Position numbers and translations under genes: made by a program. The notes under the pieces are model-generated. The model made no database searches. It worked only from the letters and a program-made list of their open reading frames with translations, and had not been told where the DNA came from. From an uncultured Chryseobacterium sp. (GTDB lineage: Bacteria > Bacteroidota > Bacteroidia > Flavobacteriales_C > GCA-002722245), in the NCBI GenBank assembly GCA_964406465.1, contig CAYORT010000012.1, positions 7,653 through 71,652 of the forward strand: a stretch of 64,000 nucleotides of DNA. Direction: 5' to 3'. Every line of letters begins with the position of its first letter. The first letter of the stretch is position 1. Shown here one piece after another: positions 17,383 to 19,977 of the stretch.

Positions 17383-17461
17383 ATCCTCTCCGGCATCTCA
17401 ATCCCCAACAACTTCATCAATTTTTTCAAAGTGTCACCCACCTCTTTCTACAAGGCAACTC
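17383..17461 (-). pseudogene. Decayed duplicate of the argS 3' end
   Basis: 71/79 identical to 18224-18302. Translates as VAL*KEVGDTLKKLMKLLGIEMPER, followed by I*. Confidence 0.92.
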
Positions 17462-17516
17462 AGTACTTTCAAATTTTCAAATTGAAACAAGTAGGTATTT
17501 TCATTATCTTAGAGAC

Positions 17517-17768
17517 ATGAATGATGAAAACACAAAGGGTGATTTGAATGAACCAAGCGCAGAGTATTCTTTAAATAAAAGAATTACTTTTTTTGGTTCT
17601 AATGAAGAAGCTGAATTGTATCATCATCAGCAAATGGCGAATAAAACGCCTTTGCAAAGACTTCATGATACTGTTGAATTGATCAAAAAGGTATTTGCTC
17701 AAGAGTTGTCGGAGAAACCTAAAAATGCTAATCGAATTACCTTCCTAAAAGATGGACATACTTCTTGA
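17517..17768 (+). CDS. Small hypothetical protein (83 aa), putative partner of the nucleotidyltransferase
   Basis: ATG at 17517. The ORF-track extension to 17319 runs through the REP and argS duplicate and is not credible. Overlaps the next gene by 17 bp. Confidence 0.65.
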   Translation: MNDENTKGDLNEPSAEYSLNKRITFFGSNEEAELYHHQQMANKTPLQRLHDTVELIKKVFAQELSEKPKNANRITFLKDGHTS

Positions 17769-18219
17769 AGACCATAAAAAACTCTTGCTCGTTTTATTAA
17801 AGCATAAAGTGGAATTTATGCTTATTGGAGGGTATGCAGTGATTTATTATGGCTATGAAAGAACCACCGCAGATATGGATTTGTGGCTTAAACCTACCAA
17901 TGAAAATAAAAGTATTTTCACTAATGCCCTTCGTGAGCATGGCATTGTTGAAGAGGATTTATTAAGCCTTTCTAAAATTGATTTCACTCAGCCTAATGTT
18001 TTCTTTTTAGGGGAAATGCCAAATAGAATCGATTTTCTTACAAAAATTCATGGCGTCACCTATGATGAAGCCGACAAGGAAAAAGCACTTTTCCCGCTGA
18101 AAGACCAACAAGTTCCAATTATTCAATACCATCACTTGATCACTGTTAAAATGCTTACTGGTAGGAGTAAGGATGCTGCAGATGTAGAAGAGTTGCAGAA
18201 AATTAATGGAAAGAAATAA
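17752..18219 (+). CDS. Minimal Pol-beta-superfamily nucleotidyltransferase (DUF6036-like)
   Basis: LIGGYAV...RTTADMDLW (GG plus DxD), RIDFLT, and GRSKDAADVEEL. Confidence 0.85.
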   Translation: MDILLEDHKKLLLVLLKHKVEFMLIGGYAVIYYGYERTTADMDLWLKPTNENKSIFTNALREHGIVEEDLLSLSKIDFTQPNVFFLGEMPNRIDFLTKIHGVTYDEADKEKALFPLKDQQVPIIQYHHLITVKMLTGRSKDAADVEELQKINGKK

Positions 18220-19977
18220 TTACATCCTCTCCGGCATCTCAATTCCCAACAGCTTCATCGATTTCTTTAATGTATCACCCACCTCTTTCGACAAGGCAAC
18301 TCTAAAGTTTTTTGAGTTTTCATCCTCAGCATTTACAATTTGGTGATCGGCCCAAAATTGCGAGAATTCTTTGGCTAGGTCGTAGCTGTAGTTGGCCATA
18401 ACTGCCGGACTATTCAACTTACCAGCTTCTTTGATGGCAGCCGAATAACCCAATATTTTTTTGATTAACTCTTTCTCTTTTTTAGTGAGCGATGCAACTT
18501 GGTATTCTTTTGCTTCGCCTACTTTGCGCAGAACAGAGCGGGTACGAACGTAGATGTATTGAATGAACGGTCCCGTATTTCCGTTGAAGTCGATGGACTC
18601 CTCTGGATTAAAAATCATTGATTTTTTAGGGTCGACTTTCAAGATGAAATATTTCAAGGCGCCCAAAGCAATCTTGCGAATCACTTCATTTTTTTCTTCC
18701 TCGCTCAACTCATCTAACTTTCCTTTTTCGGCAGTGCTTTGCGCTGCAGATGCAATCATTTCCTCAATTAAATCATCGGCATCAACCACCGTTCCTTCAC
18801 GTGTTTTCATTCTTCCGCTAGGCAACTCCACCATTCCGTATGAGAGGTGGAATAAGCCTTCCCAGAAAGAATAGCCCATTTTCTTTAAAATGAGGAACAA
18901 CACCTTGAAGTGATAATCTTGCTCGTTGGCAACGGTGTAAATGATACCATCTACATTGAAATCTTTGTAACGCTCTACGGCGGTACCAATATCTTGAGTC
19001 ATATATACTGCTGTTCCATCAGAACGAAGCAATAGTTTTTCATCTAAGCCATCTGCCGTTAAATCAATCCACACAGAGCCATCGTCCTTTTTAAAGAAAA
19101 CGCCTTTTTTCAGTCCTTCTTCAATGATCTCTTTACCGAATAGATAAGTGTTCGATTCATAATAAAGCTTATCGAAATCAACGCCGAGTTTTTTGTATGT
19201 AGCATCAAAACCTTCGTAAACCCAGCTGTTCATAGTTTTCCATAGTTCTACTGTGGCAATGTCTCCAGCTTCCCACTTGCGCAGCATTTCAGAGGCTTCC
19301 AAGAAAAGGGGTGCTTTTGTTTTGGCGCTTTTTTCGTCCATACCGCCAGCTATTAACTCTTGCATTTCTTTTTTGTAGGCTTGTTCAAACATCACATAGT
19401 ATTTTCCAACTAAATGGTCTCCCTTGCTACCTGATGACTGCGGCGTCTCGCCATTTCCCCATTTCATCCAAGCGAGCATCGATTTACAAATGTGAATACC
19501 GCGGTCGTTGATGATTTGTGTTTTGATCACTTCGTTGCCATTGGCCTTCAATATTTCCGAAACTGAATAGCCTAAGAAGTTGTTGCGAATGTGTCCGAGA
19601 TGTAAAGGTTTATTAGTGTTTGGTGAAGAATATTCTACCATCAATTTTTTAGAAGGTGTACTCGCTACAAAAGGTTGCTTATTCTTAAAAGCATCTACCC
19701 AATAAGCATCGGCGATAGATAAATTTAAAAAGCCTTTTACAACATTGAATGCCGCAATCTCTGTTAAGTTTTCATTAATAAATGCACCTAAATCTTGTGC
19801 TGTTTGTTCGGGTGATTTTTTAGAAATTTTCAATAATGGAAATACAACAATGGTAAGGTCTCCTTCAAACTCAACTTTACAAGGTTGAAGCTGAACCTGC
19901 TGTTCGGTAATTGTTGCTCCGTATAGTTGCTGTGCGGCACTGATAGCAGCACTTATAATTTTATTCTCGATGTTCAT
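18220..19977 (-). CDS. argS: Arginyl-tRNA synthetase
   Basis: VEYSSPNTNKPLHLGHIRN (HIGH), MKTREG, GNTGPFIQY and C-terminal LGIEMPERM. Confidence 0.99.
   Translation of the reverse strand: MNIENKIISAAISAAQQLYGATITEQQVQLQPCKVEFEGDLTIVVFPLLKISKKSPEQTAQDLGAFINENLTEIAAFNVVKGFLNLSIADAYWVDAFKNKQPFVASTPSKKLMVEYSSPNTNKPLHLGHIRNNFLGYSVSEILKANGNEVIKTQIINDRGIHICKSMLAWMKWGNGETPQSSGSKGDHLVGKYYVMFEQAYKKEMQELIAGGMDEKSAKTKAPLFLEASEMLRKWEAGDIATVELWKTMNSWVYEGFDATYKKLGVDFDKLYYESNTYLFGKEIIEEGLKKGVFFKKDDGSVWIDLTADGLDEKLLLRSDGTAVYMTQDIGTAVERYKDFNVDGIIYTVANEQDYHFKVLFLILKKMGYSFWEGLFHLSYGMVELPSGRMKTREGTVVDADDLIEEMIASAAQSTAEKGKLDELSEEEKNEVIRKIALGALKYFILKVDPKKSMIFNPEESIDFNGNTGPFIQYIYVRTRSVLRKVGEAKEYQVASLTKKEKELIKKILGYSAAIKEAGKLNSPAVMANYSYDLAKEFSQFWADHQIVNAEDENSKNFRVALSKEVGDTLKKSMKLLGIEMPERM

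Follow-up and report, generated by a model that had tools for sequence, protein, structure and literature searches.

A 64,000-nt stretch of DNA from an uncultured freshwater Bacteroidota bacterium (the window, by which we mean this whole stretch) carries, directly behind the stop codon of argS, the gene for arginine--tRNA ligase, a cassette of two small genes and, on the far side of that cassette, a second and decaying copy of the argS 3' end, the orphan. We regard it as probable that the arrangement is a scar left by one recombinational insertion, needing no recombinase of its own, at a hot spot between argS and a repetitive extragenic palindrome (REP) doublet. The mechanism, the direction of the event and the toxin-antitoxin function of the cassette are what we infer. 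The core of the locus is made up of the following features (ORF, open reading frame).

17336-17369: arm 2 of the REP doublet, bordering the orphan copy; forms a 34-nt perfect inverted repeat with 16075-16108
17379-17461, minus strand: orphan argS end, last 27 codons plus stop, with TCG>TAG (stop), TCG>TTG (S>L), ATG>ATT (M>I) and TAA>TAG
17462-17478, minus strand: probable extension of the orphan, argS codons -33 to -28, with a 3-nt deletion and a 1-nt insertion; nearest to the L098 allele (AAT, TCG>TTG, TAC)
17479-17495: 17-nt filler between the orphan and the conserved cassette; contains the TTGAAA of a promoter-like site
17496-18219, plus strand: conserved two-gene cassette of 724 nt; the same block occurs in three other genomic contexts
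17517-17768, plus strand: 83-aa partner protein, candidate antitoxin; overlaps the next ORF by 17 nt
17752-18219, plus strand: 155-aa minimal nucleotidyltransferase (DUF2204/DUF6036, PF09970), candidate toxin
18220-18302, minus strand: live argS 3' end, the final 27 codons and the stop; counterpart of the orphan
18220-19977, minus strand: argS, arginine--tRNA ligase of 585 aa (Pfam tRNA-synt_1d, DALR_1 and Arg_tRNA_synt_N)

A repeat search returned 17380-17461 and 18221-18302 as an 82-nt direct repeat, 89% identical at a spacing of 841. No other long family in the 64-kb window reaches high identity: a further two of at least 40 nt are 72-73% identical. When the last codon and the stop are included, the orphan and the live copy agree at 73 of 83 positions, which adds Met to Ile and TAA to TAG to the Ser to stop and Ser to Leu changes carried by the orphan; the live copy retains the reading frame and the stop of argS. 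An earlier note on this DNA had given 17383-17461 and 18224-18302 as direct repeats at 71/79, with six synonymous differences (in D, T, L, K, L and G codons) besides Ser to Leu and Ser to stop. On recheck the figure of 71/79 was exact, and the differences were borne out by the codon alignment. The same note had placed about 760 bp with two genes and no integrase between the copies, and the decayed copy next to the REP doublet. Indeed, 762 nt separate 17379-17461 from 18220-18302, and ORF and domain searches found there two overlapping plus-strand ORFs (83 aa and 155 aa) and no integrase; the spacer between the REP arm at 17336-17369 and the orphan stop is 9 nt.

A further 17 nt, as far as 17478 (argS codon -33), probably belong to the orphan as well, by way of a 3-nt deletion and a 1-nt insertion. 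The BLAST alignment of the orphan region to the related loci L097/L098 reaches the same position, and in a null test of the extension 59 of 20000 random 17-mers scored as well. From the orphan core (17461) to the start of the 83-aa ORF there are 55 nt, and on the cassette's opposite side the stop of the nucleotidyltransferase gene and that of argS abut, 0 nt apart. Counted after the extension, the insert measures 741 nt, holds two non-mobility genes and is flanked by a repeat of 83-100 nt. Contigs of X1 (17342-18700) and X3 (17342-18378), independent runs of different studies, span the REP arm, the orphan, the cassette and argS with no differences; an assembly artefact, which the earlier note had named among the possible refutations, is therefore excluded.

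The two copies trace to two functional alleles of argS, and not simply to a live end and its decayed derivative. When the ten differences in the 83-nt core are classed by alignment against eight relatives, four are private to the orphan and two to the live copy, three are adjacent allele sites and one is shared with L091. The changes private to the orphan (the stop, S>L, M>I and TAA>TAG) are all damaging or in the stop codon; the two that are private to the live copy are both synonymous, and 18252 is still polymorphic in the species. At the third-position sites 30, 33 and 36 the orphan reads GAC-ACT-TTG, the allele of L098 and L094, and the live copy GAT-ACA-TTA, that of L091, L093, L095, L099, L102 and L103. 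Over the 17 nt of the extension the orphan once more agrees with L098 (AAT, TTG derived from TCG, and TAC), and with the three sites in the extension counted, six allele-type sites differ between the copies.

Random single changes in these codons are synonymous in 21% of cases, and the probability that six neutral changes are all synonymous is 8e-5. Taken alone, the count of synonymous and non-synonymous differences fails to reject a duplication in place (P = 0.05 under that model), and the partition by lineage is therefore needed. Orthologous argS genes diverge by about 15%, whereas the 83 nt of the orphan contain about four private changes. The orphan therefore arose well after the species had split, and the differences between the alleles were imported rather than accumulated in place. 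The proposal of the earlier note that a replacement end had come from a different, functional argS allele is in this respect supported by the partition of the differences over lineages. In this genus argS is a recombination mosaic on a fine scale, and in the window it consists of tracts of 100-200 nt, in which runs of 8-19 informative sites alternate between L093-like and L098-like. The longest L093-like run (18376-18244, with 18 of 19 informative sites) includes the live end, and as a whole the gene is equidistant from all members of the genus (84-85%).

The cassette was also found in three other contexts, which show it to be a discrete module not carrying an argS end. An enzyme of 92% identity (P0001), together with the same 83-aa partner, is encoded in ten contigs (L081-L090) with hisS/ORF6N on one side and an ABC-F gene on the other. 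An 88% relative is present in another context in L183, and in the P0258 contig a 92% relative is followed by a different gene. The DNA shared with the window is exactly 17496-18219, a block that starts 21 nt ahead of the first start codon and ends with the second stop codon, at 84% nucleotide identity to L081-L090 and 77% to L183. Beside the cassette an argS-like end is lacking in all three contexts; the earlier note had suggested a search for the gene pair next to argS-end duplicates in other genomes, and none of these contexts has one. The 17-nt filler at 17479-17495 resembles neither the argS alleles nor the DNA on either side of the cassette in L081 and L183. The promoter-like TTGAAA-17-TATCTT at 17482-17510 is not above shuffle expectation, and a terminator scan likewise yielded nothing above shuffles.

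As a separate observation, the cassette of L081 is bracketed by a 52-nt direct repeat (5473-5524 and 6512-6563, 85% identical) that contains a hairpin. Adjoining it, at 5525-5690, is a short minus-strand ORF that resembles an N-terminal fragment of a SAM methyltransferase.

The gap behind argS is a hot spot for small modules, including different toxin-antitoxin modules in sister species. The 14 related argS loci that were inspected belong to different species (84-85% at the nucleotide level), none of them conspecific; all begin with typA-argS and then diverge. A ParD-like/ParE pair, and then the same REP doublet and ligA, follow argS in L097/L098 and also in L091/L092. In L093, L095 and L099-L103 an IMS-family (ImuB/DinB-like) polymerase and a DnaE2-type polymerase are encoded directly after argS. 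L094 has a short ORF and typA after argS, L184 and L185 have other genes, and in the P0251 contig (JGI sample 3300059473), a sister locus that is likely to be uninserted, a gap of 232 nt behind argS contains no called gene. Neither the nucleotidyltransferase cassette nor a second argS end was found in the 14 related loci, each of which has a single copy. The argS-end duplicate is peculiar to the species of the window. In genome collections the closest ArgRS among the matches listed has 62% identity, with no cassette; the protein collection holds a genus-level ArgRS series at 90-94%, 85%, 82% and 76% amino acid identity. A scan of metagenome contigs with the ArgRS C-terminus gave, among the matches listed, one close locus (L103), which is of the polymerase type.

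Two further details of these loci can be mentioned. In L097/L098 the region 5759-6384 encodes an 84-aa protein and a ParE toxin, and the same sequence follows the argS stop in L091/L092, with no gene-end duplicate. In the polymerase-type loci the IMS and DnaE2 genes replace the arrangement of REP doublet, small ORF and ligA.

The orphan is likely, though not proven, to be the older resident end. It runs on without a break into the syntenic flank of REP doublet and ligA, which fits such an origin. The statement in the earlier note that the decayed copy is the original argS end is thus likely from parsimony and REP/ligA synteny, and the alleles of the relatives give no decision. Comparison of both copies with cassette-free relatives, from which that note had hoped for an answer, favours the two-allele origin; the relatives split, and so return no verdict on the native copy.

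Variation within the species was followed in the assembled contigs of 8 DNA and 4 RNA runs, and such contigs drop rare variants. All 8 DNA and 4 RNA runs that hold the sequence show the cassette, and the contigs of the 12 runs contain no empty site or cassette-skipping joint; the cassette is fixed in the species as sampled. X5-type strains have a G at 17449 and an orphan without stop codon, so the nonsense mutation at this position is recent and still polymorphic. In X3, X4 and the RNA runs an A is found at 18252, which is the state of the orphan and the ancestral state; the CTG of the live copy is therefore young and derived. X5, X6 and X7 have the same A>G at 17436 and at 18277, an identical repeat position in both copies. 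The variants of the X5-type strains leave the allele patches of the live copy unconverted, and these patches therefore predate the strain split.

When X5 and X7 are compared with the window, the argS 3' region (18244-18586) differs by about 4%, and the cassette side (17404-18253) by about 1% or less. The shift in divergence begins near 18277, which suggests a within-species recombination breakpoint inside the repeat.

We envisage the insertion as follows. A piece of about 740 bp, consisting of the two-gene pair and the 17-nt filler, would have landed directly behind the argS stop, in the variable slot between argS and the REP doublet, and would have left the last 33 or so argS codons in two copies. 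The copy joined to the gene would have stayed under selection, and the copy on the REP side would now be decaying as an orphan. This could have come about along two routes. The first is homology-facilitated illegitimate recombination (HFIR), in which a related donor would have had the cassette already behind argS; one crossover would have taken place in argS and an illegitimate joint would have formed at recipient codon -33, and the live end would then be donor DNA. Along the second route, the cassette would have inserted with a long target duplication (about 100 bp), after which a tract of homologous recombination would have overwritten part of the live copy. Along both routes the orphan would be the older resident copy. 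The second would explain why the insert corresponds almost exactly to the conserved module (0 nt on one side and 17 nt on the other) and why no allele-type difference lies outside the 5' half of the repeat. The mosaic structure of argS makes a later recombination tract over the live copy plausible.

Several points weigh against this reconstruction. All differences of the allele type fall within two short patches, both in the 5' half of the repeat, and the first route therefore requires that donor and recipient were nearly identical in the last 48 nt. A donor form, with the cassette behind argS and no duplicate, was not found among the matches listed in the scan of 80 + 80 + 14 argS loci and in the cassette contexts. 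No conspecific empty site was found in the 12 runs, and neither sub-mechanism is demonstrated. The direction follows from parsimony and synteny only: the cassette-free relatives split between the two alleles, and the outgroups L184 and L185 do not polarise the sites. The variant shared between 17436 and 18277 hints at gene conversion over a short patch, from one argS end to the other, which blurs the history. Finally, a recombinase may have acted in trans from elsewhere in the genome; the ORFs between ligA and typA were covered by an ORF and domain search, which found no recombinase besides the IS110 transposase.

It is conceivable, but unlikely, that the orphan is the foreign part and the live end the native one. 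A circle, or a pre-joined fragment of the cassette and a donor argS end, would then have entered by one Campbell-type crossover close to the 3' part of the repeat. At the allele sites the live copy is matched by most relatives without the cassette (L091, L093, L095, L099, L102 and L103), the L093-like run of the live copy continues about 74 nt upstream of the repeat, and the nearest cassette relative (the P0001 type) co-occurs with the L097/L098 argS type in the same samples. These points speak for this reading. Such an entry, however, needs a prior illegitimate joint between the promoter side of the cassette and an internal argS codon. Moreover, the orphan is L098-like in patches (BB-AAAAA-BBBB-AAA-BBB), and it is the orphan that continues into the syntenic REP/ligA flank.

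The earlier note had seen att-site logic in this arrangement, with an integrase-less mini-island. Taken as an island of 841 bp that brings a portable argS end as attP, in the manner of tRNA-gene islands or of e14 at icd, we consider this clearly improbable. A recombinase supplied in trans would have acted at the argS 3' end, on the GAGTTGCC...TAA segment. The direct repeats do bracket the cassette, the live copy regenerates an intact frame and stop, the synonymous differences between the copies are of the allele type, and icd/icdC offers a precedent (PMC13626634). Yet there is no recombinase in or near the element, the three other cassette copies come without an argS end and their shared DNA stops at the nucleotidyltransferase stop, and the contigs of the 12 runs contain no empty site, circle or joint. 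In addition, a ParDE pair occupies the same slot of relatives without the repeat, and the upstream boundary of the orphan is ragged with indels where a clean core would be expected. The absence of a recombinase nearby, of argS ends beside the other cassette copies and of an excision product in the assembled contigs of the 12 runs, and the ParDE pair without a duplicate, leave the att-site and mini-island proposals unsupported. Very improbable, to our mind, is that the pair constitutes a self-compensating, recombinase-free mobile cassette, which would copy the end of the gene it lands behind, excise as a circle and re-enter by homologous recombination; if that were true, the ends of essential housekeeping genes would serve as portable attachment sites. 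A duplicate unrelated to the cassette (an older tandem duplication, a leftover of an earlier rearrangement or an assembly artefact) can practically be set aside. In its favour are the argS-ligA gap, variable in every relative examined, and the 113-aa slot beside ligA, in which the window and L098 differ too. Against it, the conserved cassette lies 0 and 17 nt from the repeats on its two sides, about four private changes mark the orphan as young, independent assemblies agree, and an orphan without cassette occurs in none of the 14 related loci.

The insertion that we favour leaves a scar of a known kind, and ordinary recombination suffices for it; it is neither a new mechanism nor a new class of mobile island. 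Insertion with long target duplication has been described for restriction-modification modules without mobility genes, with repeats that sometimes overlap the 3' ends of genes (Nobusato et al. 2000; Furuta, Abe & Kobayashi 2010, PMC2853133). As in those cases, a small selfish module without mobility genes lies between direct repeats, which there measure tens to hundreds of bp and here exceed 30 bp, and the repeat is single-copy in uninserted relatives (14 loci). The cargo differs, restriction-modification there (PMC2853133) and a toxin-antitoxin-like nucleotidyltransferase pair here. The repeats of those modules are near-identical, whereas the two argS ends are 88% identical with differences of the allele type, for which a later recombination step has to be assumed.

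HFIR has been proposed for the displaced ends at Rhs, contact-dependent inhibition (CDI) and type VI secretion system (T6SS) effector-immunity loci (Kirchberger et al. 2017, PMC5361080). At those loci, too, the conserved upstream part of a gene serves as anchor, a new 3' end comes in with linked genes, the old 3' end is displaced downstream as an orphan, and no integrase takes part. There, however, the new end is a different toxin domain and the displaced immunity gene is still useful, whereas at argS the same housekeeping C-terminus is specified by the two ends, and no use of the orphan is evident.

That the end of a protein-coding gene can be displaced has long been known from the attachment of e14 and phage 21 in icd and from the icdC pseudogene (Hill et al. 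1989; PMC13626634). With e14, the 3' end of the gene is likewise replaced by an element-borne copy with mostly synonymous differences, and the original end is left on the far side. Unlike the insert behind argS, which is 0.74 kb long and has no recombinase and no sign of excision, e14 is a prophage of 15 kb that encodes an integrase of its own and is excised upon SOS induction.

The present case shows a small addiction-type module fixed directly behind an essential gene without an integrase. Through it, the loci with displacement or long-target-duplication scars now include the gene of an aminoacyl-tRNA synthetase and extend to a freshwater lineage of Bacteroidota. The relics of gene ends can be used to date and orient such insertions, the orphan stop codon being still polymorphic here.

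For the cargo itself, it is reasonable to propose a toxin-antitoxin-like pair, made up of a candidate toxin and a candidate antitoxin. The 155-aa protein matches Pfam DUF2204 (PF09970; E 3e-6) and gives weak PADLOC AbiEii matches (E 0.002-0.02, spanning some 45 residues). It is a member of a large family of Bacteroidota proteins 155-160 aa long, in which a GG...DxD motif (G26, G27, D41 and D43) is invariant. Its structural model (pLDDT 89.8) matches the folds of TM1012, the MenT1 toxin and LnuA. The 83-aa partner had no match in Pfam, NCBIfam or PADLOC. It is part of a family of about 30 clusters (76-92 aa), and its model (pTM 0.41), in which two to three helices follow an N-terminus that is disordered, is too weak for a fold search. 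The GC content of the cassette is 34.4%, against 37.2% for the window. The cassette is transcribed, since contigs from a river metatranscriptome cover 17538-18399; they do not cover the orphan copy.

As far as the cargo is concerned, the closest parallels are the MenAT and AbiE systems, MenT1 being a tRNA-modifying toxin (MenT biology: PMC10435456, PMC7450476). Shared with them are a small upstream partner gene that overlaps the gene of a minimal nucleotidyltransferase and the GG...DxD active site (PMC10435456, PMC7450476), and the likeness of the 155-aa model to the MenT1 fold amounts to a TM of about 0.6-0.66. In contrast to those systems, the family found here is DUF2204/DUF6036 and not DUF1814, and the matches to the AbiEii profile are weak.

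Beyond the orphan, the window continues towards ligA with the following features.

13661-15706: ligA, the first feature in plus-strand order
15723-16064: unannotated 113-aa ORF between ligA and the REP doublet
16075-16108: arm 1 of the REP doublet, partner of 17336-17369
between the REP arms: IS110 element, which splits the doublet

The 113-aa position next to ligA forms a second variable slot. The ORF found there in the window (15723-16064; 29% GC) has no family match, and the one in L098 (6516-6857) is equal in length and position and unrelated in sequence. It was consequently rejected as a synteny marker.

A role of IS110 in the insertion of the cassette was rejected as well, because this element sits in the REP arm and is absent from the cassette-bearing X3 strain. 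In the X3 contig that corresponds to window positions 16117-17353 the REP arms are joined by 37 other nucleotides, with no IS110 and with the cassette present, and the two insertions are therefore independent.

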